Source: Bacilli bacterium (GTDB lineage Bacteria > Bacillota_I > Bacilli_A > RFN20 > CAG-826). From it: 64,000 nt of DNA. The position numbers were made by a program, and so were the translations under genes. Below, in pieces: positions 3,883-20,602 of the stretch. Location: assembly GCA_017470115.1 (NCBI GenBank), contig JAFUEZ010000002.1, positions 49,665 to 113,664 on the forward strand, read 5' to 3'. The notes under the pieces were generated by a model. That model did not search any database and was not told the DNA's origin. It was given only the letters and a program-made list of their open reading frames with translations. Position 1 is the first letter of the stretch, and the number at the start of each line of letters is the position of its first letter.

Positions 3883-5313
3883 TTAATCTTCTTCTAAATC
3901 AACTAACCAAGACGTCATCAAGCTCTTTTTAAATACACGAATTGTATTGCCATAAGTTACGTCAAAATAATATTTTATAGCCATGTCTTTTTCATCATTA
4001 ATGAAGCATTCAACATATTTACAATCTTCGGTATTAAAGAAATCACTCTTTTCTTTAGGATCATCTAAATTGTATGCAGGAACAAATTTATGGAATCCAT
4101 TATTTTCTAAAATTTGATCATAACCACCAAGTAAATAATATGGACTATCGTCACGTATGTTATAGCATTGATGGTGATAAGATAAGGTTCCATCGAGAAG
4201 ACCAGAATGAGCAAAAGACATTGTAGTTGGAACGTTGTAACGTTTTCCTAAAGGAATAAATGGGATTGCATTTGGATCAATGCCTCCATCATACCATGTA
4301 GCAAATGTTGCTTTATCGCTTTCACTCCAATCGGTTGCGGTTGTGGTTTCTTTTTCACCAAAATAACCTTTTTTCATTTTATAAAACATGATTTCTGTGT
4401 TATTTAAAGGACCATAAGTTTTGCCAAGTGGAGTTGTATAAAGATAATTTTGAAGTCTAATCATGCATTCAATTTCTTCTTTTTCATCAAAACAATACCA
4501 ATATCCACCATTTTTACCATAAAAGCCATAATAAGGATCTTCATATGAACGATTTACAGTAAATCCATTTTTCTTTAATATTTCTACATAATCTACTGGG
4601 TGAACATTTGCTAAATATGCTGTAGTGTGACTTGGTTTTTCTTTGTAATAATCAAGTCCATACCAAATTTCAATATTATCTCCTTCAGGAGCAGGAAGTT
4701 TAATTCTTGTATCCTCTCCAAGTGATGCTAAGGTTTCATTTAAAAGATCTGAATCGGGAATATTTTTTGTTCCTTGATAACCTTTAAAGACTTTAGAATT
4801 ATCTTCGTTAACATAAACAGTTTTAAGGTCGTTTGTGACAAAATACATGAATTTGCCATAAGCGACAACAAGGTAGCCATCATCATATTTTTGAGCTTTT
4901 AGTGGATCTTTAATTCCTCTATAAAGATAGATTCCTTCTTCGTTTTCTCTTAGTTCAGATTCTTTACAAGTAAAACTTAAAACACCATCTTTTCTTTCAA
5001 CATAAACATATTGTCCTTGAGTGTTATATAAAGTTACATATTCTTTAGAATTATAAACGCTAAAAAGTAAAGCTTTACCTGAATAATAGCTTGTTGAAGT
5101 TGATCCTTCATATATTGTCCAAAAATATGCTGACTCATCTAATTTTTTATTAAATGAATCCATATCTGTGAATTTTTCATATTTTAAATCCTGAATAAAG
5201 TAATCTTCGTAGTTGTCATAACCACTTTCTCCAAAAATAAGTGATAAAAAATCACAGGAAGTTAAAGAAATTGCGCTTATAGCTACTAATAAAATTTTGC
5301 CAAAATGTTTCAT
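3883..5313 (-). CDS. Secreted lipoprotein of 476 aa; function unknown.
   Basis: The N-terminus MKHFGKILLVAISAISLTSC is a signal peptide ending in the lipobox LTSC. No catalytic motif was recognised. Confidence 0.6.
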   Translation of the reverse strand: MKHFGKILLVAISAISLTSCDFLSLIFGESGYDNYEDYFIQDLKYEKFTDMDSFNKKLDESAYFWTIYEGSTSTSYYSGKALLFSVYNSKEYVTLYNTQGQYVYVERKDGVLSFTCKESELRENEEGIYLYRGIKDPLKAQKYDDGYLVVAYGKFMYFVTNDLKTVYVNEDNSKVFKGYQGTKNIPDSDLLNETLASLGEDTRIKLPAPEGDNIEIWYGLDYYKEKPSHTTAYLANVHPVDYVEILKKNGFTVNRSYEDPYYGFYGKNGGYWYCFDEKEEIECMIRLQNYLYTTPLGKTYGPLNNTEIMFYKMKKGYFGEKETTTATDWSESDKATFATWYDGGIDPNAIPFIPLGKRYNVPTTMSFAHSGLLDGTLSYHHQCYNIRDDSPYYLLGGYDQILENNGFHKFVPAYNLDDPKEKSDFFNTEDCKYVECFINDEKDMAIKYYFDVTYGNTIRVFKKSLMTSWLVDLEED

Positions 5314-5663: not shown

Positions 5664-6362
5664 ATGATTGGTTTTATTACGTTAATTATATTCATGTTTG
5701 TTGCCTTTGGGCTCACCACTATATTTAGAAAGTGGCTTGATGTTCCTACTTTAATTGCGGTTGCTATCGGTTCTGCTGTAAATGCGAATTTATTCACTTC
5801 AATTAATAATCCTATTTATTTAGGAGAGCTTGTTTTTTCAATGGAAAACATTTTAAGTGTTTTATTTATGTATACCGTAATTGTGAGAATTTTAGATTAT
5901 GGATATAAACAAGGAAGAAACATGACAATTACCACTATTGCCGCAATTATTATTTCAGCGCTTATCGAGCTTACCGCTAAACTTGCGTATAATGGATATT
6001 CTATAGAAGCACTTAAAAACTTCTTTATCTACCTTTTCTCATGTATTGGATCAATTGCTGGAGTTTGGGTTATGGTTTTAATCACAATTGGCTGTAGAAA
6101 AAAGAATGTTTTATCTTATTTAATAATTCTTTTAGCTTTAATTGCTGGTTTAATTGTCCACTCAGTATTCTATTATGGTGGCGTTGCCCTGATTGAATTT
6201 GATAATATCTTTAATTTCAATAGATTGCTTGGCGCTGTTATTCTTAAACTCACTTGTATTTTATTAGCAATGTTCTGCTACTTTATTAATAAAAAATATT
6301 TAATCCCTAACAATTTAAAAAAGACTAGTGAAGCTAGTCCTGAAAATAAGCAAAACAAATAA
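5664..6362 (+). CDS. Integral membrane protein of 232 aa with about six TM helices. It may be a VUT/YhhQ-like substrate-capture transporter component; function uncertain.
   Basis: The hydrophobic ORF has a short polar C-terminal tail. The family assignment is a weak guess from composition only. Confidence 0.45.
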   Translation: MIGFITLIIFMFVAFGLTTIFRKWLDVPTLIAVAIGSAVNANLFTSINNPIYLGELVFSMENILSVLFMYTVIVRILDYGYKQGRNMTITTIAAIIISALIELTAKLAYNGYSIEALKNFFIYLFSCIGSIAGVWVMVLITIGCRKKNVLSYLIILLALIAGLIVHSVFYYGGVALIEFDNIFNFNRLLGAVILKLTCILLAMFCYFINKKYLIPNNLKKTSEASPENKQNK

Positions 6363-6364
6363 TT

Positions 6365-7480
6365 TTATTTTCTGCGTTCTATTTGAGAGGTTTTATAATA
6401 TTCAGATTTGTCGACATACATCGCTTTTTCTGCTTGTCGAATTAAATCTTGAAGAGAAGTGTTTTTGTCGTTACGGAAAGCTAAACCTATTGAACAAGTA
6501 TATTTAGTTTTGCTCAAATCTTCTTTGATTTCATCGACGATTTCTCTAACTGCATCTTCTTTCATATTGTTAGCAATAACAACAAATTCATCGCCACCTA
6601 ATCGATATGCATACATGTCTCTATTGCATTTATCCACAATTATTCTAGAAATTTCAATTAAGGCTTTGTCACCTTCTTCATGTCCGAAATTATCATTTAA
6701 ATATTTAAGTCCATTCATATCAAACTGAATAACAGCCGATGAACTCGCTTCCATTCTTAATAAATCTTGATAATAAGTGGAACGATTAAATAGATTAGTT
6801 AAAGCGTCTCGTTTTCTTTTTTCCATAAATAGGAATAGATAATAAGACATAACACAAATCATAATTCCTGTATTAAGAATGTGGATGTCACCGTTTTCGT
6901 TAAAGAACGTTTCAATAGATACACATGAAAGAATCAATATTACACAAACTAAAATAATAATCGCATTGGAGATATGTTTGAGTTTTATGCTCATTACGGA
7001 AACATATAAGAAATAAATCAAATATAAAAGACCAACAATATGAGAAGAGAACCTTAGTGGCCCTCCGTCAAATCCGATTTCTTCTCCTTTTATTGAGAAT
7101 TGAAATACATATTGTTTAACTCCTGGGATAAAAGCTAAAAGGAAAATCACAAAGTTAATCATTAATGGAATAGTGAATACAATCGACCATTTTCCTTTTG
7201 GTTGACCTTTACTTAAGAAGATAAATAAAACCACACAAACAGGTCTTAAAACATATTGAAGAAAAGCTACCACTGTCGTCGCTTCAACTGATGCAATATC
7301 TTTAAAATGTTGTTCTAATACTTCTGTGATTGATAGCAAAATCGCAATGCCTGTAATTGCTAACATGAATTCACTTGTTCTTTTATGTTGCTTAAAATTA
7401 AAAATCGAAATGAAAATCATGATTGCACTAATAACAATCAAGAAAATGTTTGATACGAGATAGTTTAAAAAGTGATTCAT
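6365..7480 (-). CDS. Membrane-anchored diguanylate cyclase with an N-terminal multi-TM sensor region and a C-terminal GGDEF domain.
   Basis: It contains the RLGGDEF motif in an FDMNGLKYLNDNFGHEEGD...YRLGGDEFVV context, and about six TM helices in residues 1-200. Confidence 0.8.
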   Translation of the reverse strand: MNHFLNYLVSNIFLIVISAIMIFISIFNFKQHKRTSEFMLAITGIAILLSITEVLEQHFKDIASVEATTVVAFLQYVLRPVCVVLFIFLSKGQPKGKWSIVFTIPLMINFVIFLLAFIPGVKQYVFQFSIKGEEIGFDGGPLRFSSHIVGLLYLIYFLYVSVMSIKLKHISNAIIILVCVILILSCVSIETFFNENGDIHILNTGIMICVMSYYLFLFMEKRKRDALTNLFNRSTYYQDLLRMEASSSAVIQFDMNGLKYLNDNFGHEEGDKALIEISRIIVDKCNRDMYAYRLGGDEFVVIANNMKEDAVREIVDEIKEDLSKTKYTCSIGLAFRNDKNTSLQDLIRQAEKAMYVDKSEYYKTSQIERRK

Positions 7481-7648: not shown

Positions 7649-7741
7649 ATTTTTTCATATTCACTATATAACGTGTTTATATATAAAAGCAAAGGGCTTA
7701 GCTTTTGCCATGCCCTTTGTTTTTGAAAGAATATTTTATGA

Positions 7742-10700
7742 TTAATATTCTTCTTCTGGTTCTTTTCTTTCTTTCACATTAATCTTGCCGAGTGCAATAA
7801 GAGCAATGAAAGCTGCATCTACAAGTGCTAAGACACCAGCAACAATCCAACCAGCGATTAAGCCTGATTTCCATGGGGACATTTCATACCAAATGGAAGC
7901 ACTTGGGGAAATACCTTGGACACAGTTACTATTTGCTTTGTTGAATAAAATGTGTTTTGTAGCATCTTTTAAGTGATAGACAGCTGTTGGGGAAGATGTG
8001 TCATATAAACCATCTGTACCATTATTGGTAAGAGTTAAGTGACCACCTCTTCTTAACATGAAGTCAGAAGTCATATAAGTATTCTTTTGACCACCAGCAT
8101 CAGTAATTGCTGTACCTGTGAAGCCAAATTCATCTTCGAGGATGTCATGGATAGAGACGCTTGCACCGCCCCATGTGGCACCGATTCTGTTATAACATGT
8201 CATGATGCCTGTTGCAGCTGACATAGTCTTTTTGGATAAATTGGTATCTAATTCTTCGCCAACTTGTGCATAATATTTAACTTCCATTTTGGCTTCTTTC
8301 ATGTAAAGTTCCCAACCTTTAAGGTAGACTTCACGGAAAGCTTGTTCGTTAACCCATGAACAATAACCATTCTTTTGACGATTTGTTTCTTGATCGTTTA
8401 ATGCATAGTGTTTCATGAAGGTGATTAAACCTTTTTCGGAAGCACCACCTGCTTCAGCAGCAGCCATCTTACCAGCTAAGATACCATCTTCTGAATAATA
8501 TTCATAGTTTCTACCACCGAAGGCGCTTCTATGCATATTGAGACCATAACCATAGATACCAGTGATTAATGTGCCACCTGCTAAGTAGTTAGCATGAGCT
8601 TCTTCACCGAAGGCTTCACCTAGTTCTCTAGCGAGTTTTTCATTGAATGTTGCAGCAACCATTGGATCACCACAGTACCATTTATTGATGTTTTTAATTG
8701 TCAAAGCGTGAGCATAATAACCATATGGGGAGTCAGCATCATAAGATTCTGGAACACCATTTTCGACGTCAGCTTTTTCATTCCAACCACCATTGGTGAC
8801 CATTTCAACCATCTTAGAGAGGGTGAATTGATTCATATAGTCATCCCATTTTGGATCATTGAAGTCAACACCTCTCATACTTGCTAATGTATAGCTTGTA
8901 CCATCGGTATTAACGCTTGGCATTTCTTTGATTGGATTATTTTCTTCTGCCCAAACATCGTATCTGGCAACTTGTTTCAATGCTCTTGCGTCTGTTAATT
9001 CAAAGTCATCTTCTACTGGAGATTGTGGGAAAGAGTCTTTAAAGTTAGTTCTTGTGAAGTTAATAGCATAGCCTTCACCATGATCAGCTTCACCAAAATT
9101 TTTGAAGTGATAATTTAATTCATCATCTTCTTTATTAATAGCAACTGATTTATCTGTGGAACGTTTGCCATCTACGCCATCTTTATAAACAACTTTCTTA
9201 GAAAGATTATCAGTCCATAAGACTTTTTCTTTGCCAGAGGTCATTTCATCGATGTCAGCCCAAGAGTGAGCGTTATCAGATAAATAGAAGTTATAATTAC
9301 CAGCATCTAAAACGTAGGCTTTTTCAACTTGATAATCATAGCTTGTAAAGTAGTCTCTATTGACCTTAATTTCTAAGGTTTCAGAAGCACCAGCCGCTAA
9401 GATTTCGGTTTTTCCAAATCCGCCTAATACGACATGTGATTTTTCGACGTGATTTGCCTTATTTTCGGCTGTGTAAGGAACATTAACATAAATTTGAGCA
9501 ACACCTTTACCAGCAACAGGACCAGTATTAGTGACTTTAACTTTGAATGTGTATTCATTAGAAGCAGCATCAAATGATGGAGTTTCAGCAAATTCTTGTG
9601 CAAATGTTGTATAGCTTAAGCCATAACCGAATGGGAAGACGACTTCTCTAGCATAATCAAAGCCATTATAGTTACCTTCTTTCGCTTCTTTATAAGCTGT
9701 TTCATAATAACGATAACCGACATAGATTCCTTCTTCATAATCAACGAAGAATGTTTCATCTTGATAAGAATTTAATTCATCAGAATTTGAATACACGTAT
9801 GAACCGAAATTCTTATATGTTGGATCTTTTCTTAAATCACGGACATATGTATCAACTAAGTGACCAGATGGGTTAACAGCGCCTTTTAAGATATTAGCTA
9901 ATGCAATTCCACCTTGAGAACCACAGCAACCAGCCCAGATTGCACCATTAACTTTAGAAAAATCATATTTATTACCTGTATATGGATCTGTATAGTTACC
10001 ATCAGAATCCATGTTTGGATCGTTTTCTTGTAACCAACCAAGTTCCATTGCGTTAGCAGAGTTAACGACAATAATAACTTTGTTGAAGTGTTTACAAGCA
10101 TAATCAATGAGCTTTAATTCAGCGTTATTGATAACTAAGCCACTTCTATTTTGTTCACTCATGCCTTGATTTAATGATTGGTCATTACCTTCACCAGAGT
10201 TTCTCTTTAAGGTGATGACGGCTGTTGGATATGAAGCAAATGTAGATTCAGCACTGGCTAAGGCAGTAGCTGGATCAACAAAATCACCATTTGCAGTAGC
10301 ATAAACTTGTTTAGTAGCTTGATTGAATGGGATATCTGTATCTTGTTCAATGCCGTTGGCTAAAGAGACTGCTCCACTTGTGCTTGCTGGGTCTTCACCT
10401 CCAGACATATTGTTGTGCCAAGAATAATAGCCTAACACAGTGACACCTTCATTAGCAGCAAGTGGTAAAGCGTTATTCTTGTTTTTTAACAATGTCATAC
10501 CTTCTTCAGCGGTAAGTTGTGTCATTCTTTGTGCGTTTTTTAAAGCATCGTCTTGATTATCAAATTCAAAATCAATGTAATTGCCATCTAAAGAGCTATT
10601 ATCTTTAGTATGTTGTTTGCCACGTCCAAGTAAGAGATCTAAGTTGTTTTCTTGAACGTTAGCGGCAATTGTGACGCCACCTAATAAAGCCAAGACGGCA

Positions 10701-10753
10701 CCTCCTATGATGGCTAAGTAAGTAATTCTTCTATTTTTAGCTTTCATGTTCAT
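7742..10753 (-). CDS. Glycoside hydrolase family 3 enzyme (beta-glucosidase/xylosidase-like) of 1003 aa. The domain order is circularly permuted, with an N-terminal signal-anchor and a C-terminal TM helix.
   Basis: KHYALNDQETNRQ and GFTGTAITD (the domain-1 KHF and nucleophile-Asp region) lie near the C-terminus. The alpha/beta-sandwich region lies near the N-terminus. Hydrophobic segments occur at both ends. Confidence 0.8.
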   Translation of the reverse strand: MNMKAKNRRITYLAIIGGAVLALLGGVTIAANVQENNLDLLLGRGKQHTKDNSSLDGNYIDFEFDNQDDALKNAQRMTQLTAEEGMTLLKNKNNALPLAANEGVTVLGYYSWHNNMSGGEDPASTSGAVSLANGIEQDTDIPFNQATKQVYATANGDFVDPATALASAESTFASYPTAVITLKRNSGEGNDQSLNQGMSEQNRSGLVINNAELKLIDYACKHFNKVIIVVNSANAMELGWLQENDPNMDSDGNYTDPYTGNKYDFSKVNGAIWAGCCGSQGGIALANILKGAVNPSGHLVDTYVRDLRKDPTYKNFGSYVYSNSDELNSYQDETFFVDYEEGIYVGYRYYETAYKEAKEGNYNGFDYAREVVFPFGYGLSYTTFAQEFAETPSFDAASNEYTFKVKVTNTGPVAGKGVAQIYVNVPYTAENKANHVEKSHVVLGGFGKTEILAAGASETLEIKVNRDYFTSYDYQVEKAYVLDAGNYNFYLSDNAHSWADIDEMTSGKEKVLWTDNLSKKVVYKDGVDGKRSTDKSVAINKEDDELNYHFKNFGEADHGEGYAINFTRTNFKDSFPQSPVEDDFELTDARALKQVARYDVWAEENNPIKEMPSVNTDGTSYTLASMRGVDFNDPKWDDYMNQFTLSKMVEMVTNGGWNEKADVENGVPESYDADSPYGYYAHALTIKNINKWYCGDPMVAATFNEKLARELGEAFGEEAHANYLAGGTLITGIYGYGLNMHRSAFGGRNYEYYSEDGILAGKMAAAEAGGASEKGLITFMKHYALNDQETNRQKNGYCSWVNEQAFREVYLKGWELYMKEAKMEVKYYAQVGEELDTNLSKKTMSAATGIMTCYNRIGATWGGASVSIHDILEDEFGFTGTAITDAGGQKNTYMTSDFMLRRGGHLTLTNNGTDGLYDTSSPTAVYHLKDATKHILFNKANSNCVQGISPSASIWYEMSPWKSGLIAGWIVAGVLALVDAAFIALIALGKINVKERKEPEEEY

Positions 10754-10759
10754 TTCCTC

Positions 10760-11407
10760 CTATTCTTTGACGACTTGAACGTTTTGTTGATTAACTTTAC
10801 GTGCATAGTATTTTTGGAATAATAAGACACCACAGTTAATAGCTTTGAAGATGCCGGTGATTAAGCAGACAACTAAGACCACAGTTGGGTAATAGTCTTT
10901 GCCAAAATATAATTCACCATTCATAGCTGGTAATAAGTATTCTTCATAATAATTGGTGTAAGAACCGGTCACGTGTTTAGCGTTTTCAATCCAAAGTTTG
11001 TCACAGTTGAAGAGAATGATGCCACCAAAGATTAAACAAATGGCAACGATTCCTTCAACGATGGCTTTTTTCTTATTTGTGCCTCTTCTGTTGAAGTTAG
11101 TAGCGAGCATAATGCAAGCAACGATACAACCGATTAATGGTAAGAAACAACCTAAGAATGTCCAGATGTTGAATGTGGCTTCTGTGTAACCTTGAATAAT
11201 CATGTTTCCATAACCAGAGAAGATGGCTTGATAGCCTGGATAACTAAAGCCATTAGCATATTTTGTGCCATCATCTGTAAAGATTGTGAAGACATCTGAG
11301 AAATTAAATAACACTAATATGACAATCGCTAAAATGCCTAAAGCGATAGAGATGAGGGCTAAGATTTTAGCTGTTGGTTTTAAGATCTTTAAAACTTTGT
11401 TTTCCAT
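10760..11407 (-). CDS. Polytopic membrane protein of 215 aa, function unknown, in the same operon as the GH3 gene.
   Basis: It has about five or six TM helices and is tightly linked: a 6-bp gap to the GH3 gene and a 13-bp gap to the upstream lipoprotein gene. Confidence 0.55.
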   Translation of the reverse strand: MENKVLKILKPTAKILALISIALGILAIVILVLFNFSDVFTIFTDDGTKYANGFSYPGYQAIFSGYGNMIIQGYTEATFNIWTFLGCFLPLIGCIVACIMLATNFNRRGTNKKKAIVEGIVAICLIFGGIILFNCDKLWIENAKHVTGSYTNYYEEYLLPAMNGELYFGKDYYPTVVLVVCLITGIFKAINCGVLLFQKYYARKVNQQNVQVVKE

Positions 11408-11420
11408 TATTTAGTCCTCC

Positions 11421-12899
11421 TTATTTAGATTGAGTTAAGACAACATCAATGGTTTGTGTGCCAAAGAAGCTACTCACTTTGATTTGATAGACGAAGCCAT
11501 ATTTACCTTTAGCATCTTTAGCGGACACTAATGGTTCTCTACCTTCTAAGTTAACGTTTAATGTGCTGTCGGCTTCAGACCAAGTTCCTGAAGCTGTTGG
11601 AGCAAAACCGCCTTCATATAAGTTGGCCTTACCATCAACGCCTAAGTTAAGGTTGACAGACTTTGTGCCACCATCTGGACCAGATGTGGTATAGGAGCCA
11701 ACAAATTCATATTTTGATTCACCATCGAAATCAGAAAGAGTCATTTTGTTCCATTTGACTTCTGGGTTTAAGCTGACAAAATAAGCTAAGTTATTATAGA
11801 CGAGTCTATAACCTGGGTGATCTTTATTAACGGAAGCAGTTGTTTCGTAAGTTTGTTCACCATCTTTGATAACGATCTTGCCATTATCTTCAGACCATGT
11901 TGGGCCATAACTAACAGTACGGTTTGCACCACTTGGGCTATTTAAGACGACGGAACCATCGTTATGTAAGTACATATAAGCTGTAGCTTTGCTATTGTTA
12001 TTACCAGTAGCAACTGCCTTGAAGATGTATTTGCTATCTCTTTCATCCCATTTAGCGTAATCTTTCGCTAAAGTTTTATAGAATGTTGGATCTTTAGCTT
12101 GGAATTTAACTAAGGATTCGTGGCCTTCGATGTTGACGTTATAGTAGAATTCATGACGGCCTTCGTATTTATCAAAGTCAGCGTGAATAACTGTTTTGTT
12201 TTCATCATTGAGATTTAAGATATAGCCATATCCTTCTTCTAATTTATAGGTTCCGCTTAATGACCAGTTATGAGCAGCTAAGTCTTCTTTAACGACTGTT
12301 AATTCAGCTGAAGCTGATTTAGTTGGATCACCTTGGCTTGTTGCAGTAATCGTGACTTTACCTTCGGCCTTTGGTGTGATGGTGCCACTGCTGACAGTAG
12401 CAATTTCTTCATTAGAAGAAGACCATGTGACGTTTTTATTTGTAGCGTTTTCTGGAAGAATTGTAGCTGTTGCTTTAACGGTTTGACCGATGAAGGCTTG
12501 TGTCATATCGAGTGAAAGACTGATGCTTTCCACTGCGACTTCTGGTTGTTGTTCACCTCCACCTGGGCCGCCTTGACCACCAGGACCACCGCCTCCACCT
12601 GGGAAGCCGCCTGGGAATCCACCGCCTGGGAATCCGCCACCAGGACCGCCTTGACCACCACTATTACCGGATGAACGACCTTGAACAATACCTTGTAAGG
12701 TGAAATTGTTACTTTTTTGATCAACAACACCTTTAAATTTGTAAGCGTAGTCGCCAATTGTTACTTCTGTATTATAGGCACTAGAAGTTGTAGCGACAAA
12801 TACGACAGGGATTTTTGCATTGCTCTGACAAGCGCCTAAACTAACAATTGATGTTGCTAAGACGATGGAGAGTAAAGCATTTTTCTTAAATACTTTCAT
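11421..12899 (-). CDS. Surface lipoprotein of 492 aa with a Gly/Pro-rich linker, a Big_2 domain and a C-terminal beta-rich domain. It is the first gene of the GH3 operon.
   Basis: The lipobox is SLGAC. The linker reads GGQGGPGGGFPGGGFPGGFPGGGGGPGG. The Big_2 signature is VKATATILPENATNKNVTWSSSNEEIATVS...AEGKVTITATS. A GAGGAGG ribosome-binding site precedes the ATG. Confidence 0.7.
   Translation of the reverse strand: MKVFKKNALLSIVLATSIVSLGACQSNAKIPVVFVATTSSAYNTEVTIGDYAYKFKGVVDQKSNNFTLQGIVQGRSSGNSGGQGGPGGGFPGGGFPGGFPGGGGGPGGQGGPGGGEQQPEVAVESISLSLDMTQAFIGQTVKATATILPENATNKNVTWSSSNEEIATVSSGTITPKAEGKVTITATSQGDPTKSASAELTVVKEDLAAHNWSLSGTYKLEEGYGYILNLNDENKTVIHADFDKYEGRHEFYYNVNIEGHESLVKFQAKDPTFYKTLAKDYAKWDERDSKYIFKAVATGNNNSKATAYMYLHNDGSVVLNSPSGANRTVSYGPTWSEDNGKIVIKDGEQTYETTASVNKDHPGYRLVYNNLAYFVSLNPEVKWNKMTLSDFDGESKYEFVGSYTTSGPDGGTKSVNLNLGVDGKANLYEGGFAPTASGTWSEADSTLNVNLEGREPLVSAKDAKGKYGFVYQIKVSSFFGTQTIDVVLTQSK
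12540..12670 (-). repeat. GC-rich imperfect short repeats (GGxCCnGG-like) encoding the Gly/Pro-rich linker.
   Basis: Reiterated units ccacctggg, ccgcctggg and ccaccagga form a local GC island in an AT-rich genome. Confidence 0.6.
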
Positions 12900-12973
12900 T
12901 GTATTCCTCCTCTACCTCTTTCGAGTTTTTCATGACTATATCCTATAAGAAAAAAAGTAAAGAAAAACCATTT

Positions 12974-13042
12974 GGGAAAAGCTCCCGTTATTAAGGGACA
13001 TAAATAATTTAAATGGGACAAAAGTCAAATTTATTGGGACGA
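12974..13042 (-). promoter_or_regulatory. Four direct repeats of TGGGA(C/A)A (TGTCCCA on the transcribed strand) at 21-bp spacing upstream of the GH3 operon; putative LytTR response-regulator boxes.
   Basis: GGGAMA occurs at about 12974, 12995, 13015 and 13036. A -10-like TATAGT lies downstream, nearer the ATG. VirR and AgrA-type boxes are direct repeats with the same periodicity. Confidence 0.5.
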
Positions 13043-13090
13043 AAAAAGACAATCAATAGATTGCCTTAATTCACATAAGTGTGACTTATT

Positions 13091-13825
13091 TTATAAATAA
13101 ATAGATTTATTTTTACGCGTAACAGAAAGGTATTCTTCCATGATTTCATCTTTTCTTTTACTAGAAAGAGGGAGAACTTTATTATTAGTTAATTTAACCT
13201 CATTTGTACCAATCATTCTAATAAATAGATAATTAACTAAATACCCTTTGTGTACACGTATGAAACCATTTTCTTTTAATTTGCTTTCTAATTCACCCAT
13301 TAGTACACGGGCATCGAATTTAGAACCATCTTTTAAATAAAAAGTTTGATAGTTTCGATTACCTTCGATATACATTACTTGATCAATATCCGCGGAAATC
13401 GTTTCGGTTTTACAAGAAATAGTAATCTTTTTATTTTCTCTATTAGTATTGAGCGCTGTATTAACAAATAGTTCCAAAACACTAGCGAAGTCCTGAATAA
13501 TTCTTGATTTACGGATAAAACCAAATGGATGGAGTTGTAATGTATCAAATACTAAATCTTCTCTTTGAGAAAGATAGATAATATCAGTTTGAGGATTGAA
13601 ACCTTTTAATTTTTTACCAACTTCTAAGCCGTTAATTTCTGGCATATCAATATCAAGGAAGACAAGACGATAATTTTTTTCCTCGGCCATCGCTAAAAAG
13701 TTAATAGGAGAAGAAAAAGCATCTAAAGAGATAGCAATATTCTTTTCTTGAAAGAAAGATTCTATAGCGCCTTTAGAAATGAGTAAGGCAGTCTTATCAT
13801 CATCAAGCAAAGCAATCTTAAGCAT
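13091..13825 (-). CDS. Response regulator with a receiver (REC) domain and a LytTR DNA-binding domain (AgrA/VirR-like).
   Basis: The receiver motifs are LLDDD and FLDIDMP. The C-terminal LytTR region reads YIEGNRNYQTFYLKDGSKFDARVLMGELESKL...FIRVHKGYLVN. Confidence 0.85.
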   Translation of the reverse strand: MLKIALLDDDKTALLISKGAIESFFQEKNIAISLDAFSSPINFLAMAEEKNYRLVFLDIDMPEINGLEVGKKLKGFNPQTDIIYLSQREDLVFDTLQLHPFGFIRKSRIIQDFASVLELFVNTALNTNRENKKITISCKTETISADIDQVMYIEGNRNYQTFYLKDGSKFDARVLMGELESKLKENGFIRVHKGYLVNYLFIRMIGTNEVKLTNNKVLPLSSKRKDEIMEEYLSVTRKNKSIYL

Positions 13826-15173
13826 TGTTAACTCCCTTATGGTTCATATTTAATAAACAATCACAGACGAACTTGTCATCTTCAAAAGCAAACGAGACAT
13901 AACCTTCATATTTCTTAGCGATATTTTTAATAATTTTAGTGCCATATCCGTGTGCTTTACCATTTTTTGTCGTTCTTAGTGATGGCTTACCTTTAACTTG
14001 ATTTGTTTCCACACTATTAAAAGCGGTAATTCGCAAATAATCTTGTTGGGTAACAATAGCGACATTAATAAAATCTTCTTCATTTTTTGGCACAAAATTT
14101 TCTAATGAATTATCAACAATATTAGTGATTAAAGATAATAAATCACTGTCCTCAAAAGGAAGATGAGGAGGAACCACTACTTTGAATTTGATTTTTTTAT
14201 TATCAATCTTAGCTTTAGTTAATTCTAAATTAACAATGCCAGAGACCACCAAGTTAGAACACGAAAAACTATATAAATATTCTTCTTTTTGGTTAATCAA
14301 AGATTGAATATAATTGTTTGCTTCTTCATATTTACCATCATTTAATAAAACTTGTGTATAGCTGAGTTGATTTCTTAAATCATGACGTATCTTCATTAAT
14401 TCTTCACGGTTATTCATATCAATTTCTAAAGCATCTTTTTCCATTTCCATAACGCTATTAGAAACTTCAAGTTCTGTCACTTTGTGACGATAATCAATCA
14501 AAGAATAAATGGAATAATAAATACCTGTTAAAACACCAAGTTCTACGACTGAAACAAAAATTAATAAGGCGCGACCACCTGAATCACTAACGTTTAAGAA
14601 GTTTTGCCAAACCGCACTGACACTAAGAAGAGCGGCTAAAGACAAAAGAATAGCAACATGGGTAATTGGTAATCTTTTAAATCTCATAATGTCAAATTTA
14701 TAAATTACCATAGCAATAAATGGCAAAAGAATAATTGGTATGCTTCTTGCTAAGACAACAAAGAAAGTAATACCTGTTAATTCACCAACCGCCATACCTA
14801 ATGTACGACCAATCTCTTCTGTAATTAATGTCGAAGCCACTACTACAGCAATTTTAATAATTTTATGTAATGGACGATCTTTAAGAAAGAAAACAATAAA
14901 AAGTGTTGGAATGACCGCAAAGGAAGCGGTAAATAACATACCACCAATTTGTAGGCTAATCATATTAGCCAATGCAAAGAAGATTGATTCTAATCCCACA
15001 AAGCAACAATATATGATAACAAACGTCACTGCTGACCAGAGAACACTCTTTTTAGTAAGCGTTTTAGGGGCAGTAATAATAATTAAAGAAAACGACATGA
15101 AAAAGTATTGAATATACATCGTCGCATCTAAAACACGTGTAAAATAAGTCGCCAAAAAATCTATGAAATTCAT
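13818..15173 (-). CDS. Sensor histidine kinase of the HPK10 (AgrC/ComD/VirS-like) class, with a 6-TM N-terminus and no HAMP domain.
   Basis: The H-box is IRHDLRNQL, the N-box is NIVDNSLENF and the G-box is KNGKAHGYGTKII. It overlaps the response-regulator gene by 8 nt. Confidence 0.8.
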   Translation of the reverse strand: MNFIDFLATYFTRVLDATMYIQYFFMSFSLIIITAPKTLTKKSVLWSAVTFVIIYCCFVGLESIFFALANMISLQIGGMLFTASFAVIPTLFIVFFLKDRPLHKIIKIAVVVASTLITEEIGRTLGMAVGELTGITFFVVLARSIPIILLPFIAMVIYKFDIMRFKRLPITHVAILLSLAALLSVSAVWQNFLNVSDSGGRALLIFVSVVELGVLTGIYYSIYSLIDYRHKVTELEVSNSVMEMEKDALEIDMNNREELMKIRHDLRNQLSYTQVLLNDGKYEEANNYIQSLINQKEEYLYSFSCSNLVVSGIVNLELTKAKIDNKKIKFKVVVPPHLPFEDSDLLSLITNIVDNSLENFVPKNEEDFINVAIVTQQDYLRITAFNSVETNQVKGKPSLRTTKNGKAHGYGTKIIKNIAKKYEGYVSFAFEDDKFVCDCLLNMNHKGVNNA

Positions 15174-15215
15174 ACTTAACTATATTAACATAGTTACCTC
15201 TATTTTGATATCACA

Positions 15216-15242
15216 GGGACAAAAAGTGCCCCTTTTGGGACA
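15216..15242 (-). promoter_or_regulatory. Two GGGACA direct repeats 21 bp apart upstream of the kinase/regulator operon; a putative autoregulatory LytTR site.
   Basis: The sequence tcacaGGGACAaaaagtgccccttttGGGACAaac lies 45-70 bp upstream of the kinase start. Confidence 0.45.
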
Positions 15243-15398
15243 AACAAAATGTTTTTGTATTGACAAGTTCATATGCAAAACTCGTTTTATTTATTTTGTT
15301 ATAAATCTCTCGTACTTCGTTCAACAATTTGAAGAATTATAAGAAAGAAAAAGATGCCATTATAGACTAAATGGGTTCACTTCAAATGCTAATCTTTT

Positions 15399-15674
15399 TT
15401 AATTGTCATCATAATGAGACCACATTGAATGTATTACGACTGTGTTAATATCTTTGTGAACTTTATAAACTAGACGATGTTGAAGATTAATTCTTCTAGA
15501 ATAATAACCTTGTAAATCACCAACCAGTTTTTCATAGTTAGGTGGGTTTTGAAAAGGATTTTTTGCGATAAGGTTTAATAATTTCTTTACTTTGTCTTCT
15601 AATCCAGCGTTTTTAAGTAGTTTTTTATCTTTTTCAGCGTTTTTGGTGAATTTAATAATCCACATAACTACCAC
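15399..15674 (-). CDS. yoeB: YoeB/Txe-family type II toxin (mRNA interferase).
   Basis: KLVGDLQGYYSRRINLQHRLVYKV...SMWSHY matches the YoeB family signature. The gene overlaps the upstream antitoxin gene. Confidence 0.8.
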   Translation of the reverse strand: MVVMWIIKFTKNAEKDKKLLKNAGLEDKVKKLLNLIAKNPFQNPPNYEKLVGDLQGYYSRRINLQHRLVYKVHKDINTVVIHSMWSHYDDN

Positions 15675-15919
15675 TCTTCATTTGGATTATAAGTAGACAT
15701 TTTAGAAATATCTTCTTTTTCGCCACTTTTAATCTTCTCAACAAGTCCTTTTTGAGAAACTAAATAAATAGTTTCTAGCATCGCATTATATTCAGCTTCA
15801 GATATAATAACTGCGTTTCCGTTTTTGGTGCTCACAGTGATAGAGTCATTGTACTCAATGACATTATCAATAGAACTAAAGAGATTCTTTCTCAAAACAG
15901 AAATATTAGTAACTGCCAT
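15668..15919 (-). CDS. yefM: YefM/Phd-family antitoxin.
   Basis: It is an 83-aa protein with a Phd/YefM-like N-terminus (VLRKNLFSSIDNV...AVIISEAEYNAMLETIYL). It overlaps the toxin gene by 7 nt. Confidence 0.7.
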   Translation of the reverse strand: MAVTNISVLRKNLFSSIDNVIEYNDSITVSTKNGNAVIISEAEYNAMLETIYLVSQKGLVEKIKSGEKEDISKMSTYNPNEEW

Positions 15920-16398
15920 AAGTCTTTCCTCCTAATTATATTATATAACAAGTATGTACGTAATCAAGTACAATAGCGCATTTTTCTGTACAATAGATAA
16001 TAAGAAAAATAACACTTTGGATGTCTTATATTACGTAACTATAATGCCGAGTAATTCTCTTAAATAAGCTTCTGTCGCAGCGAACAAGCGTGCTGACCAA
16101 GAAAAAGAATAAATAATTTAATTATTTTAAGGCAAAGCGAAACGGTGAAATTTAAAATACAACCCATTTAATGAGTCTTTTTGGTTTACGATTTTTTATC
16201 ATTTTTGCCTTCAAATTGTTAAAAAATCACATATTTTGTATTATTAGCCTCACCAAAAAGTTAAATTATTCTTACAGAAGTTAATTTCTTTTATATTTCA
16301 AAGACTTGGTGCAATTTAAATTACAATTAATCATCTTTATTTTCAATGTTTTATAATATCTATAAATAATATATACGCAGAAAAGAAGGTAACTGATT

Positions 16399-19300
16399 AT
16401 GTTTAAAAGATATTTTGGTAATGCAACAAAAAAGCAAATTAAAACAAAAATAGTGTTAATTGCGGCCTTTTTGCCATTAATTATAGCAACTTTTATCGGT
16501 CTTGGAATTGGAAACCATTTTGCTTTCAATGTCTATGACTCAAACATAACTGCTTATCTTTGTAATCCTGTCGCTGGTAACAATGAAAGTATTATTGCCA
16601 CCAAAAAAAGCGGCAATGAATTATCTAGAGAAATTGAAAGAGAGGGTGCGGTTTTAGTTAAAAACGATGGAACCTTACCTTTGGATAAAAGCATTAATAA
16701 AGTTAATGTTTTTGGACATTCTTCTATAGACTGGTATTATTCAGGCGGCGGTTCAGGTGCGGTTAACGCAAATGGGGAAATTCAATATAATGTCCCAACA
16801 GCTTTAATGAATAATGGTGTTGAATATAACCATGATTTATATAACTTTTACACTAATTTTAGAGGTCCATTAGGAGGGAATAATCCTAACTTAGGTGGCG
16901 CGAGAGCGGAAACCATCTGTGTTCTTGCAGAACCCACACTAAGTTCGTATGGAAATCTTTTAAATAGTGCCAAGTCATTCTCTAACACCGCAATAATGTG
17001 CATTTCAAGAAAAGCGGGTGAAACCGAAGATATTCCTCATGCTCAATATAAATATAATGCGGATACCGATTTTACTAGGGGTTATTTAACCATCTCCACC
17101 GAGGAAGAAGCGTTACTTGAATGGATTTGTGATAATTTTGAAAATGTTATCGTTTTAATTAATTCCACAAATCTGATGCAATTAGACTTCCTTGATAGAA
17201 TTGAAAAAATTGATGCTTGCTTAATATGTGGCTGTACTGGAAACTATGGGGCTAATGGAATTGTTGATATTATTTATGGTGAAGTATCTCCAAGCGGAAA
17301 AACAACGGATACATATCCATATAAATTAGAATATGAACCATCCTATTATCGTGGTGGTTATGAATATATCAATAACTATGAAGGAGCCCCTTCAAGCGCA
17401 TGGCCATATAACCGTAATTATAAAGATAGAAATGAAAGAAAGGTTTTCTATGTCGATTATATTGAAGGTATTTATGTTGGCTATAAATGGTATGAAACTG
17501 CTGACGTAGAGGGTTTCTGGGATGGCGAGCCATATAATGGGTATGAAAATGTTGTTCAGTTCCCCTTTGGTTTTGGAATGTCGTATACCACCTTTAGTTG
17601 GGAATTAGAGGAAACATCATTAGCAAATGGTGGTCGAATCACCTCTAATAAGGATGAAATCACTGTCAAAGTTAAAGTCACAAATACGGGAAATTTCAAA
17701 GGTAAAGATGTCGTTGAAATCTATATGACTCCACCATATTATAATGGGCAAATCGAAAAGGCTCATGTTAACCTTGTAGGCTTTATGAAATCACCAGAAC
17801 TTGAAAGTGGGCAAAGTGTTTCTCTTACATACACGATTAGGGTGTCTGATTTTGAAAGCTATGATTGTTACGATAAAAACAATAACGGACATGTTGGTTA
17901 TGAACTCGATCAAGGTGAATACATAATTAAATTTATGGAAGATTCACACACTCTAAAAGAGATGAATACCAACACCTTAACTTATCATATCGATAACACG
18001 ATTAACGTTGATGTTGATGAAGTTACTGGTCAAAAAGTCACAAATATCTTTACTGGCGAAAAAGCGATTGATGGTGGAAGTTCGGATGGGAGCACTCTTA
18101 ATCAAAATGTTGATTTTATGACAAGAGAGAATTTTGTTCTTCCAACCACCACACAAACAAATCGTAACTGGAACATGGCTCTAGAAGTGTCTCCTACTTC
18201 TGCTTGTATTAATACATATTCCACCACCATTAGAGACGCTTGGGATAATAAGACGGGAAATGATGGTTTTGGAAATCAAATACCAACCACTAATCCATCA
18301 TGGGGCAGCGGCTCTGGTTCAAACAAAGTTATTACTGGCGGGCAATTAACAGAATTAGGACGTATACTTGCCGATCCAGAAAATTGGAATGATGATGAAA
18401 ATTGGAATAAGATTTTAGATCAAATTTCCTGGGATGAAGCTATCGATGTCATTAATACCAATTCATTAAGTAATGATAAAGGCATTCCAAGCGCAGGTAG
18501 ACCAGATGGAAATGATGCGGATGGTCCACAACAAATTGGCGCTATTGCTGGTATTGGTTCAGTTAGAGGAACAGCTTACCCTTGCATTACTGTCACCGGT
18601 CAAACATGGTCAACATCTTTAGCATATCAAATGGGGAAATCATATGGTAAAGATATGCAGGCTGTTGGAAGAAGCGGCGCTTACGCCTTTGGGGCGAACA
18701 TCCACCGTTCTGCCTATACAGGAAGAAATTTTGAATACTTCTCAGAAGACGGATTCCTTTCAGGAAAAATGGCTTCAAACGCTTCTAAGGGTGTCGCGGT
18801 TACTGGTAAATATTGCTTTATGAAGCACTTCGCGGTTAACGACCAAGAATATCACCGCGTTGGTTTATATACTTGGGTTAGTGAACAAGCAATTAGAGAA
18901 ATCTATTTAAAGCCTTTTAAAGAATGTGTTCTATATGGTGAATTAAGTGCCTTAATGACCTCCTTTAATAGAATTGGCAGTATTTGGGCTGGAGGAAGTG
19001 AAGCCTTGATTACCGGTGTTTTAAGAAACGAACGGCAATTCCATGGAATGATTGTTACCGACTACTGTGAATCATCTCAATTAATGGATCAGGCTCAAGC
19101 AGTTAGAGCGGGTTCTGATTATGGAATGAATATGCATTACACTAGTGGTGTATCTTCGTCTTTACCAAATAGAAGTTCTGCTACTCCTAGATTTCAGTGG
19201 AGAATGAAAGATGTTTGTAAAGAAATTATTTACGGGTACATTCATCCACTGCTTGTGAATTTTAACTACAACGAAAGCGCCGATGAAGAAGAATATATTA

Positions 19301-19452
19301 TTGTTACTAGTAGTAAAAATCCTTGGGAATGGTGGCGTCCAACATTAGTCAGTATTGATGTCGCTATTGGAGGAGGACTCTTATTCTGCCTCTACTTGCT
19401 TTTAAGACCAATTGTGGAACCAGAAGAAAATGGAAAGGAGGGTGTAGAATAA
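16399..19452 (+). CDS. Second GH3-family glycosidase of 1017 aa, a paralog of 7742..10753 with the same permuted domain order and both N- and C-terminal TM anchors.
   Basis: KHFAVNDQEYHRVG and GMIVTDYCES lie at the C-terminal end. AVLVKNDGTLPL...GGGSGAVN lies at the N-terminal end. The C-terminal TM helix is LVSIDVAIGGGLLFCLYLLL. Confidence 0.8.
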   Translation: MFKRYFGNATKKQIKTKIVLIAAFLPLIIATFIGLGIGNHFAFNVYDSNITAYLCNPVAGNNESIIATKKSGNELSREIEREGAVLVKNDGTLPLDKSINKVNVFGHSSIDWYYSGGGSGAVNANGEIQYNVPTALMNNGVEYNHDLYNFYTNFRGPLGGNNPNLGGARAETICVLAEPTLSSYGNLLNSAKSFSNTAIMCISRKAGETEDIPHAQYKYNADTDFTRGYLTISTEEEALLEWICDNFENVIVLINSTNLMQLDFLDRIEKIDACLICGCTGNYGANGIVDIIYGEVSPSGKTTDTYPYKLEYEPSYYRGGYEYINNYEGAPSSAWPYNRNYKDRNERKVFYVDYIEGIYVGYKWYETADVEGFWDGEPYNGYENVVQFPFGFGMSYTTFSWELEETSLANGGRITSNKDEITVKVKVTNTGNFKGKDVVEIYMTPPYYNGQIEKAHVNLVGFMKSPELESGQSVSLTYTIRVSDFESYDCYDKNNNGHVGYELDQGEYIIKFMEDSHTLKEMNTNTLTYHIDNTINVDVDEVTGQKVTNIFTGEKAIDGGSSDGSTLNQNVDFMTRENFVLPTTTQTNRNWNMALEVSPTSACINTYSTTIRDAWDNKTGNDGFGNQIPTTNPSWGSGSGSNKVITGGQLTELGRILADPENWNDDENWNKILDQISWDEAIDVINTNSLSNDKGIPSAGRPDGNDADGPQQIGAIAGIGSVRGTAYPCITVTGQTWSTSLAYQMGKSYGKDMQAVGRSGAYAFGANIHRSAYTGRNFEYFSEDGFLSGKMASNASKGVAVTGKYCFMKHFAVNDQEYHRVGLYTWVSEQAIREIYLKPFKECVLYGELSALMTSFNRIGSIWAGGSEALITGVLRNERQFHGMIVTDYCESSQLMDQAQAVRAGSDYGMNMHYTSGVSSSLPNRSSATPRFQWRMKDVCKEIIYGYIHPLLVNFNYNESADEEEYIIVTSSKNPWEWWRPTLVSIDVAIGGGLLFCLYLLLRPIVEPEENGKEGVE

Positions 19453-19453
19453 T

Positions 19454-20602
19454 ATGAAACGCAAACTTGCAAAGAAAATGTCTTTAATCCTTGGTATTAG
19501 TATTGCCTCCTTTGTAGTGGGTTTCAGTGCTATTACAATATTGGTGTCTAGAATTAACTACGCTAATTATGAAAAAGAATATGATGACGAAGTCAAAGAG
19601 GTTGAAAACGCAAAACCAAAAGGGCCACTTTATGTCGATATTGATAATGAATTTGTGACCTATGACAGCACTGGCGCTTTCATTCAAAAAACAAAATCTA
19701 TTTATCCCTATATTTACACTTGTAGAAGCACGGAAGCTGAATCCCGCGCATACGCTGCAGGAAAAAATGGCTACATAAACGTTGAAATCTATGATAACAC
19801 TTCATTTTTTGGACAGAGTATCGGTAATATTGCCCCAAACGGCGGAGGATATCTCTCCTTTATAGTTGATGTCACAGAACCTGCAGATGCGGATATTGAT
19901 TTTGTTTGTTCTTCTACTATTTATAATCCTGAAACTGGATCTGCTACAGATATGAAAGGATTAACAAAATTCGTTAAATGGACGATAAACAATATTCAAA
20001 TTGATGCTGACGATATCAATCTTCCTGCCGATAGAGATTGGTTTAATATGCAACATGTCATCCTTCATAAGGTTCATTTAAAAGCAGGGATTAATGTAAT
20101 TAAAATGGAAACCGAAAATCCAAACCCACTTAATCCTTCCGACATCCCGATTCCAAACATTTCTCATATCCATGTATTTAGTGAAAAACCATACAACAAA
20201 CAATTTGTCGTTGATGGTGATAGTGTCCACCTTGTTCAAAGAGCAAACAAAATTTATTATATGTTATCTGGCTCTTGTGTTGGTTATGAAGCAGATGATT
20301 TCTTTGTCGATATGTGCTTAGATGGTCAAAGCCTAAATCAAATCAACAAAAATGCATATGATTGCGTGGTAAGAGATGGTTATTTCTTAATCACTATTGA
20401 TACTTCGTGGTTTGCACCAAATCTATATCTCCCACACTTCTGGCTCGAAGGTTCTTTATATAACACTGGCAGAGAACAAGGTGATGTTATGACCTCAATT
20501 GACGCTGGTAGATATAATTGGGACAATCCTCACACCAAGCAAACACTTGGAAACGCTAGAATTGATATTAAGAATTCAATTATGGCATTAGTCATTAGCT
20601 AA
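19454..20602 (+). CDS. Membrane-anchored protein of 382 aa with a beta-rich extracellular domain, possibly a carbohydrate-binding module. It is translationally coupled to the GH3 gene.
   Basis: Its start lies 2 nt after the GH3 stop and an AAGGAGGG ribosome-binding site sits inside the GH3 3' end. It has an N-terminal TM helix. No catalytic motif was recognised. Confidence 0.5.
   Translation: MKRKLAKKMSLILGISIASFVVGFSAITILVSRINYANYEKEYDDEVKEVENAKPKGPLYVDIDNEFVTYDSTGAFIQKTKSIYPYIYTCRSTEAESRAYAAGKNGYINVEIYDNTSFFGQSIGNIAPNGGGYLSFIVDVTEPADADIDFVCSSTIYNPETGSATDMKGLTKFVKWTINNIQIDADDINLPADRDWFNMQHVILHKVHLKAGINVIKMETENPNPLNPSDIPIPNISHIHVFSEKPYNKQFVVDGDSVHLVQRANKIYYMLSGSCVGYEADDFFVDMCLDGQSLNQINKNAYDCVVRDGYFLITIDTSWFAPNLYLPHFWLEGSLYNTGREQGDVMTSIDAGRYNWDNPHTKQTLGNARIDIKNSIMALVIS

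Follow-up and report, generated by a model that had tools for sequence, protein, structure and literature searches.

We analyzed a 64,000-nucleotide (nt) stretch of DNA, hereafter the window, from the Bacilli bacterium assembly GCA_017470115.1 (contig JAFUEZ010000002.1, positions 49,665 to 113,664 of the forward strand), which encodes two proteins of glycoside hydrolase family 3 (GH3), GH3A (7742..10753, minus strand) and GH3B (16399..19452, plus strand), in which the usual order of the core domains is circularly permuted and each end of the chain carries a hydrophobic segment. The permutation is real, yet already known and crystallised; the double anchoring, judged from the sequences of relatives, is the norm of a large gut and rumen clade rather than a peculiarity of the window. 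Taking the evidence as a whole, we consider it probable that both proteins are glycosidases displayed at the cell surface, with copy A (GH3A) working within a five-gene cassette under LytTR-type control and copy B (GH3B) working with a co-translated, membrane-anchored partner.

Both open reading frames (ORFs) are present where an earlier, sequence-only reading of the window had placed them, with lengths of 1003 amino acids (aa) for GH3A and 1017 aa for GH3B, and NCBI, in which both lie on a 180-kb metagenome scaffold, names both products [quoted passage not shown] (MAG, metagenome-assembled genome). Shine-Dalgarno spacing and public gene calls indicate that the real start of GH3A is probably the second ATG, at 10747 (MKAKNRR, 1001 aa). 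That reading had proposed a reversed domain order in both copies, and a comparison with Pfam models of the two GH3 core domains confirmed it: the sandwich domain GH3_C (PF01915) spans aa 86-245 in GH3A and 85-362 in GH3B, an Fn3-like domain spans aa 418-493 and 437-508, and the barrel domain GH3_N (PF00933) spans aa 701-890 and 718-911, so that the normal order was seen in neither protein. Both core domains score above their cut-offs in GH3B (81.3 bits for PF00933 and 88.1 bits for PF01915), and PF01915 scores 85.1 bits in GH3A; the GH3A barrel is accepted despite a sub-threshold Pfam score because of its PDB sequence matches and a confident AlphaFold2 model. The order of sandwich, fibronectin type III (FnIII) domain, and barrel, recovered by Pfam, HMMER, and Foldseek, is that of GlyA1, a cow-rumen metagenome beta-glycosidase (PDB 5K6L-5K6O) that was described as a "novel subfamily of GH3 with permuted domain topology" (PMC5104943). 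The statement that permuted GH3s have been reported in a few species was thus correct in kind and understated in degree, since the crystal structures 5K6L and 5WUG and a named subfamily exist.

Comparisons with solved structures point the same way. The top PDB sequence match of GH3A is the permuted enzyme 5WUG (E = 7e-46), and GH3B matches 5WUG (E = 1.6e-69) and 5K6L (E = 3.4e-60) in three collinear HMMER segments. The AlphaFold2 model of GH3A, built on 85 sequences, has a predicted local distance difference test score (pLDDT) of 88.3 and a predicted TM-score (pTM) of 0.90; Foldseek superposes it over about 960 aligned columns on the permuted structures 5K6L-O and 5WUG/5WVP, compared with about 460 for canonical GH3s, with target-normalised TM-scores of 0.75 to 5K6x and 0.66 to 5WUG. 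The modelled barrel contains a 24-residue beta-hairpin insertion, and after the barrel the model has only a helix (922-946), a short strand, and a transmembrane (TM) helix; GH3B ends about 100 aa past its barrel, likewise with a TM helix, and neither protein has the C-terminal domain of GlyA1 and 5WUG that resembles carbohydrate-binding module (CBM) families 6 and 35. GH3A and GH3B align collinearly at 28% identity over 955 aa, which bears out their proposed paralogy and, on the strength of this alignment, makes them ancient paralogues. Among the motifs quoted in the sequence-only reading, GGGSG occurs in GH3B only and the others are present in both proteins. One relative, the top-scoring representative P0244 (2342 aa), has two matched stretches, so that apparently a single polypeptide joins two permuted GH3 units in tandem.

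The catalytic residues were assigned by mapping the GlyA1 active site (Glu143, Asp709, and Trp710; numbering from PMC11233000) through a HMMER alignment and an 85-sequence alignment of both families. The predicted acid/base is Glu188 in GH3A (10190..10192, minus strand; GlyA1 Glu143) and Glu208 in GH3B (17020..17022, plus strand), and the predicted nucleophile is Asp885 in GH3A (8099..8101, minus strand; GlyA1 Asp709) and Asp888 in GH3B (19060..19062, plus strand). The catalytic motifs noted earlier were borne out, in that the Glu, the Asp, and the Lys-His pair of subsite -1 (K781-H782 in GH3A, K809-H810 in GH3B) are invariant across all 85 sequences, as is an Arg pair (R748 and R792 in GH3A, R776 and R820 in GH3B). 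The full-length superposition of the GH3A model on solved enzymes further leads us to infer that Glu and Asp are correctly juxtaposed. The residue after the nucleophile, Trp710 in GlyA1, is Ala in GH3A and in all other A-family members and Tyr or Met in the B family, and the position of GlyA1 Tyr677 is Phe in most of the B family; because Trp710 is replaced in both families, specificity probably differs from that of GlyA1. We therefore expect, from these alignments, that both proteins are active retaining glycosidases (predicted exo-beta-glycosidases of the GlyA1-type permuted subfamily) with substrate preferences unlike those of GlyA1.

The two proteins have equally distinctive ends. A Kyte-Doolittle (KD) scan found exactly two hydrophobic 19-mers in each (aa 13-31 and 970-988 in GH3A, 18-36 and 983-1001 in GH3B), and the GH3A model has helices at residues 3-33 and 960-987. 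The N-terminal helix of GH3A (aa 10-31; 10661..10726, minus strand; KD peak 2.31) follows the basic sequence MNMKAKNRR and could be a signal-anchor or possibly a cleavable signal peptide; its C-terminal TM helix (aa 960-988; 7790..7876, minus strand; KD peak 2.68) carries an acidic residue, Asp979, in mid-membrane and is followed by a predicted cytoplasmic tail, GKINVKERKEPEEEY. In GH3B the N-terminal helix (aa 18-41; 16450..16521, plus strand; KD peak 2.62) comes after a Lys-rich N terminus that includes KKQIKTK, and the C-terminal TM helix (aa 983-1003; 19345..19407, plus strand; KD peak 2.13) is preceded by the aromatic belt PWEWWRP, a pattern also seen in relatives. Basic residues precede the N-terminal helix and follow the C-terminal helix, and no lipobox Cys is present in or just after the N-terminal hydrophobic segment of either GH3.

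These ends are widely conserved. Among the 240 closest clusters at 90% identity (the 120 nearest to A and the 120 nearest to B), 230 have both hydrophobic segments (A, 120/120; B, 110/120); taken singly, the N-terminal segment is kept in 120 of 120 A-family and 118 of 120 B-family clusters, and the C-terminal TM helix is kept in 112 of 120 B-family clusters. The picture was the same when HMMER was run exhaustively against 1.84 billion representatives at 50% identity, with both segments in 132 of the best 150, a late TM segment followed by extra domains in about 10 further representatives, and only one representative with neither. Tethering at both ends had been called unusual, which holds only against characterised GH3 enzymes; within the clade it is the rule. 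The underlying proposal of anchoring at both ends stands as far as one hydrophobic segment at each end is concerned, and the N-terminal one may be retained or cleaved. In related genomes most permuted GH3 paralogues near the A orthologue also have both segments. Directly downstream of the A orthologue itself, related genomes encode a canonical-order GH3 of about 822 aa with no hydrophobic end (L003 13201-15669, L006 13198-15666, L011 13195-15660, and L031 13195-15663), which in the closest rumen MAGs is apparently cytoplasmic; the corresponding place in the window holds a GGDEF membrane protein (6365..7480).

The circular permutation may bear directly on this mode of anchoring. In the established GH3 structure, the permutation puts the chain ends at the position of the canonical barrel-to-sandwich linker, so both ends should emerge close together on the same side of the fold, where they could enter the membrane side by side; a two-helix hairpin anchor would then be geometrically easy. 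We propose that both enzymes project from the outer surface of the cytoplasmic membrane in an N-in/C-in topology, with about 930 aa of enzyme outside, because of the basic flanks of the helices, the natural in-frame fusions to a four-TM protein through an acidic linker, and the predicted extracellular partners (a lipoprotein and a CBM-like protein) described below.

Copy A is part of a five-gene cassette that comprises an AgrC-like kinase, a LytTR regulator, a Big_2 lipoprotein, a four-TM protein that we call mem215, and GH3A. A profile scan of GTDB species genomes recovered 31 A-family loci, all of them in rumen or gut MAGs, and tblastn searches with the window proteins showed the cassette to be syntenic wherever a locus had sufficient flanking sequence, over a range of 25-63% GC; the two-component genes lie upstream in Bacilli-type loci and immediately downstream in Clostridia-type loci. 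The lipoprotein (11421..12899, minus strand; 492 aa) has an LGAC lipobox, a Gly/Pro-rich linker, a Big_2 domain at aa 122-190 (E = 7e-14), and a C-terminal domain of about 290 aa that is kept in every orthologous locus and has no recognisable family; a search with this domain gave insignificant lectin matches only (E about 0.5). The linker (aa ~76-118) is of low complexity (GGQGGPGGGFPGGGFPGG...) and varies among orthologues, with split tblastn matches in L004 and L031. The gaps between the lipoprotein and mem215 genes and between the mem215 and GH3A genes are 13 and 6 nt, the mem215 stop codon overlaps the Shine-Dalgarno sequence of GH3A, and a terminator-like hairpin (AAAGGGC...GCCCTTT followed by a T run; 7685..7718, minus strand) after the GH3A stop marks the operon end.

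Several features suggest that GH3A and mem215 form a membrane complex. The mem215 protein (10760..11407, minus strand; 215 aa) has four TM helices by KD peaks and belongs to no Pfam family, its sole match being LiaI-LiaF-TM_PspC at a sub-threshold E of 0.021, which is a lead at most. Its gene always adjoins that of GH3A in orthologous loci, and in the cluster representatives P0135, P0144, and P0171 and in locus L005 the two are fused in frame (1222-1243 aa), a Rosetta-stone type of link that points to a physical complex. The acidic linkers of these fusions differ in sequence, which suggests independent fusion events or rapid divergence. Within the fusions the GH3A N-terminal segment is an internal helix, and four TM helices plus this one would place the enzyme outside, in agreement with the positive-inside pattern. 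Further, mem215 Lys188 (10844..10846, minus strand), in the middle of the fourth TM helix, is present in 28 of 28 alignable orthologues, and GH3A Asp979 (7817..7819, minus strand), in the middle of the C-terminal helix, is mostly Asp among orthologues, with Glu in several and Asn in two; the two residues are a candidate intramembrane salt bridge. Finally, the GH3A tail (aa 989-1003; 7742..7786, minus strand) ends in two acidic residues and a C-terminal Tyr or Phe in 119 of 120 A-family clusters (EEY in 79 and EEF in 30); this acidic-aromatic end is kept over genomes of 25-63% GC, the GC-rich orthologues included, is absent from the B family, and suggests a cytoplasmic or membrane partner. The fusions, the Lys/Asp-Glu pair, and the EE[Y/F] end together suggest that GH3A is probably complexed in the membrane with mem215 via Lys188 and Asp979.

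The regulatory genes of the cassette have the composition of LytTR/AgrA-type systems. The response regulator (13091..13825, minus strand) combines receiver and LytTR domains (Pfam E = 6e-13 and 3e-13), the kinase (13818..15173, minus strand) is an AgrC-type polytopic histidine kinase with a HATPase_c_5/GHKL domain (Pfam E = 7e-15), and both are syntenic in orthologous loci. A terminator-like hairpin that follows the regulator gene (13046..13067, minus strand) sets the two-component genes apart from the unit of lipoprotein, mem215, and GH3A genes. Three direct GTCCC(A/T) boxes spaced 21 and 20 bp apart (12995..13040, minus strand) lie upstream of the lipoprotein gene, and a pair 21 bp apart lies just upstream of the kinase gene (15216..15241, minus strand), where it overlaps a hairpin that the scan called terminator-like. 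The box-pair pattern has 3 matches in the 64-kb window against 0.02 expected. In orthologous loci of widely different GC, (T)TCGTCCCA repeats recur 5' of the lipoprotein gene, with a box pair in 18 of 26 promoters and a triple in 13 of 26, compared with 1.05% and 0.32% of random 300-nt windows.

LytTR sites consist of a 9-bp repeat with a 12-bp spacer. Direct repeats about 20-21 bp apart were found here in both the target promoter and the presumptively autoregulated one, and the GTCCC repeats fit the finding that LytTR regulators bind direct repeats as dimers (PMC4227749). We consider the boxes candidate LytTR binding sites, and the pair that precedes the kinase gene suggests that the two-component system regulates itself; this system would probably switch on the lipoprotein-mem215-GH3A unit through the 21-bp repeats. 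The sequence-only reading had described an operon with a Big_2 lipoprotein and a polytopic protein under LytTR boxes, and for copy A this description stands; a pattern scan of the window found no GTCCC boxes upstream of GH3B.

Copy B has a partner of a different kind. The gene for a 382-aa protein, p382 (19454..20602, plus strand), starts 1 nt after the GH3B stop (TAA, then ATG) and has its Shine-Dalgarno sequence inside GH3B, in keeping with the translational coupling to an anchored protein that had been proposed. This protein is anchored at its N terminus, belongs to no Pfam family, and has a predicted beta-sandwich at aa ~60-245 (nt 19631-20188). The suggestion that it is beta-rich and CBM-like fits a fold search, the only search that was informative, in which the modelled domain resembles CBM35 and CBM6, the model being of low confidence (pLDDT 55, built from 3 sequences); a word-indexed search recovered only 3 clusters. 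The closest B orthologues are each followed by an abutting or overlapping gene for an N-terminally anchored protein with no Pfam match, one of which is a full-length p382 orthologue at 40% identity, and the others, relatives of lesser or greater length, share a domain of about 170-250 aa. In GlyA1 and 5WUG a fused C-terminal domain is predicted to be CBM6/35-like, and its deletion lowers GlyA1 activity (PMC5104943); GH3A and GH3B lack this domain, and we hypothesize that GH3B works with p382 and that p382 may supply such a lectin-like module in trans.

Neighborhoods of other permuted GH3s add some context for copy B. A 59%-identical B orthologue (L034 1-7957) adjoins genes of rhamnose catabolism (RhaA, an FGGY kinase, and an aldolase) together with genes for a GH78 alpha-L-rhamnosidase, a DeoR regulator, and a pectate-lyase-like protein; for this genome alone, the neighborhood gives a hint that plant glycosides or pectin could be the substrates. 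Further GH3 paralogues that are permuted and anchored (L035 1922-6229 and L036 1239-7959) are each followed by a membrane-protein gene with no Pfam match, one product having roughly four TM helices and a C-terminal region that is Ig-like. Throughout the clade, anchored permuted GH3s may as a rule, and perhaps always, come with a dedicated membrane partner.

The likely task of these enzymes is to liberate monosaccharides, on the surface of a rumen or gut Bacilli cell, from oligosaccharides or glycosides of plant origin, and a number of observations weigh against parts of this explanation. The GH3_N match of GH3A (25.7 bits) is slightly below the 27-bit Pfam cut-off, and the nutritional role is assumed, as the cassette contains no transporter gene. 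The GH3A N-terminal helix ends in TIAA|N, a possible signal peptidase I site, and BrGH3A, a permuted GH3 that has been characterised, lacks a signal peptide and has been proposed to be intracellular (PMC11233000). The Lys/Asp pair shows no strict covariation, since L029, which has Asn and an alignable mem215, still has the Lys. The p382 model is of low confidence overall, and p382 has no Pfam match even at E <= 5 and no PDB profile match at E <= 1, so that its sequence does not place it in CBM35 or CBM6.

The alternative to which we give most weight, though we think it somewhat unlikely, is that the N-terminal segment is a cleaved Sec signal peptide and that the mature enzymes are type I membrane proteins held by a single anchor, as proposed for the GH3 beta-glucuronidase SN243, which was described with an N-terminal signal peptide and a C-terminal TM helix. 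The Ala-x-Ala-like sequence VTIAA|N at the end of the GH3A helix fits such cleavage, as does the lower conservation of the N-terminal region relative to the catalytic domains (mean column identity, 0.64 against 0.78); that value is, however, comparable to the 0.66 of the C-terminal TM helix, GH3B has no clear cleavage motif, and the run of residues without charge is longer than expected of a signal peptide, with medians of 29 for the A family and 23 for the B family. This long stretch and the three natural fusions to a four-TM protein, in which the segment is an internal helix, favour a retained N-terminal anchor. Cleavage at the other end, by a sortase or an exosortase-like enzyme that would leave the protein wall-attached or released, is highly improbable: a hydrophobic stretch with a charged tail superficially resembles a cell-wall sorting signal, but LPxTG is found within the last 75 residues of 0 of 240 family members, no C-terminal sorting domain matches in NCBIfam, the helix contains a conserved acidic residue, the 15-aa tail has a conserved acidic-aromatic end that is not a sortase feature, and the same ends recur across very different lineages. 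We therefore rejected a sortase or other C-terminal sorting signal, and the C-terminal TM helix proposed at the outset is retained. Just as implausible is the view that the GH3 bodies are pseudo-enzymes or face the cytoplasm. The sub-threshold barrel, its beta-hairpin insertion, and the Ala at the position of the GlyA1 platform residue Trp710 could be read in this way for GH3A, but the catalytic and subsite -1 residues are all invariant, both helices have basic residues next to them on what would be the cytoplasmic side if the body is outside, the fusion geometry of four TM helices plus one fits an outside body, and the partners, a lipoprotein and an anchored CBM-like protein, are both predicted to be extracellular.

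It is also conceivable, although we judge it improbable, that GH3A, mem215, and the lipoprotein are primarily accessory glycan sensors of the AgrC-like kinase, in a multi-component system that would pass on substrate binding or turnover outside the cell through the TM helices and the EE[Y/F] tail and would not serve nutrition. The kinase, which these three genes always accompany, lacks an extracellular sensor domain, the cassette is without a transporter gene, the acidic-aromatic motif of the tail is conserved across genomes of 25-63% GC, charged residues are conserved within the membrane, and mem215 weakly resembles the LiaF/PspC TM region. That match is sub-threshold, however, the fully conserved catalytic machinery fits a working enzyme, and plain substrate induction of a hydrolase operon is a simpler reading. 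A bolder form, for which we see only a slim chance, is that the cassette is a heteromeric membrane machine in which the GH3 is locked to the four-TM protein by the Lys-Asp pair and the EE[Y/F] end reports glycan binding or turnover to the kinase; if true, this would be a glycan sensor coupled to an enzyme, a type that has not been described in Gram-positive bacteria, and circular permutation would be what made double-end anchoring and transmembrane coupling possible.

The A-family loci extend across several lineages. Those in rumen "Bacilli bacterium" MAGs are about 87-88% identical, and others occur in the "uncultured Mollicutes" MAGs UMGS1395 and UMGS1248, in Ca. Enterosoma merdigallinarum, and in an Erysipelotrichaceae MAG; at 53-60% identity the family is found in MAGs labelled Oscillospiraceae, Lachnospiraceae, Christensenellaceae, or Clostridia with 45-63% GC. 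The labels of the closest relatives (Bacilli, "uncultured Mollicutes," and Ca. Enterosoma of RF39) gave rise to the idea that a wall-less host is the cause of TM anchoring, but for the related uncultured Bacilli orders RF39, RFN20, and ML615J-28 a mixture of species with and without walls has been predicted (PMC10868615). The window reads TGA as a stop codon (genetic code 11, not code 4). We rejected the wall-less host as an explanation that is unneeded and unsupported: the distant, GC-rich orthologues labelled Oscillospiraceae, Lachnospiraceae, or Christensenellaceae keep both helices, and a wall-less host therefore does not explain the anchoring.

Other features of the window were also surveyed. 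Between the two GH3 loci (15399..15919, minus strand) are a YoeB/ParE-type toxin (88-91 aa) and a Phd/YefM antitoxin (83 aa). Beyond the GGDEF gene lie a 476-aa lipoprotein with an LTSC lipobox (3883..5313, minus strand) and a 232-aa polytopic membrane protein (5664..6362, plus strand), neither of which has a Pfam family. A PF01171 (ATP_bind_3, TilS-like) domain is present in two separate genes (23713..24969, plus strand, and 40565..41791, minus strand). A PADLOC search for an association with anti-phage defence gave no matches, and Rfam identified a single tRNA in the window and nothing in the GH3 region.

Characterised permuted GH3s (GlyA1, PbBgl, and BrGH3A) have been studied as soluble enzymes, and the window reveals a large, diverse, and uncharacterised anchored clade in rumen and gut Bacillota, to which no fewer than 132 of the 150 best clusters at 50% identity belong. 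If these enzymes are surface displayed, they would be part of plant glycoside harvest by reduced-genome gut Bacilli (RF39-like lineages and relatives) and some Clostridia, and the emergence of both chain ends together would give a structural reason for the permutation to persist. The LytTR-controlled five-gene cassette may further represent a compact system for glycan sensing and response in Gram-positive gut bacteria. In the literature that we searched, the coverage of which is incomplete, neither doubly anchored permuted GH3s nor the cassette turned up; what appears to go beyond current knowledge is the link between fold and anchoring, the LytTR-controlled cassette, the signs of a GH3A-mem215 complex, and a CBM-like partner in trans.

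The closest characterised relatives share the catalytic fold of the window enzymes and differ at the ends of the chain. GlyA1 has the same order of (alpha/beta)6 sandwich, FnIII, and (beta/alpha)8 barrel, its Glu143 and Asp709 align with E188 and D885 in GH3A and with E208 and D888 in GH3B, it comes from a similar rumen or gut habitat, and it is among the best sequence and structure matches, although identity in the structural alignment is just 22%. It was handled as a soluble protein in a paper that makes no mention of a signal peptide or TM helix (PMC5104943), and where it has a fused CBM6/35-like domain, GH3A and GH3B have a stalk helix and a TM helix; by its authors' count this domain is present in about half of the GlyA1 cluster and is not strictly defining. 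The Paenibacillus barengoltzii beta-glucosidase (5WUG/5WVP) is the top PDB sequence match for both window proteins, with collinear alignments, but it lacks hydrophobic terminal segments in the part that aligns and has an extra C-terminal domain (PMC11233000). BrGH3A, a permuted GH3 beta-glucosidase from bovine rumen, has the same permutation and the motifs GRNFEYxSED and PFGxGLSYT (PMC11233000); at 814 aa and without a signal peptide it contrasts with GH3A and GH3B, which are doubly anchored and predicted to be extracellular. SN243, a metagenomic GH3 beta-glucuronidase (PDB 7QE1), comes closest in its ends, with a predicted N-terminal signal sequence and a C-terminal TM domain that were interpreted as surface binding (bioRxiv 10.1101/2022.04.25.489410), yet its domain order is canonical (Lys318-His319 and the nucleophile Asp415 are in the N-terminal half), it has a NagZ-like Asp/His dyad and belongs to a different GH3 clade, and no partner genes have been described for it.

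For the regulatory genes, the closest parallels are AgrCA, ComDE, and FsrCA. A polytopic HATPase_c_5 kinase paired with a receiver/LytTR regulator is common to these systems and the copy A cassette, as are direct repeats about two helical turns apart at the target promoter and at the system's own promoter. No pheromone precursor or processing gene was seen near the copy A two-component genes, and in place of pheromone, bacteriocin, or virulence genes, the genes that they would control in copy A form a predicted surface glycosidase module.

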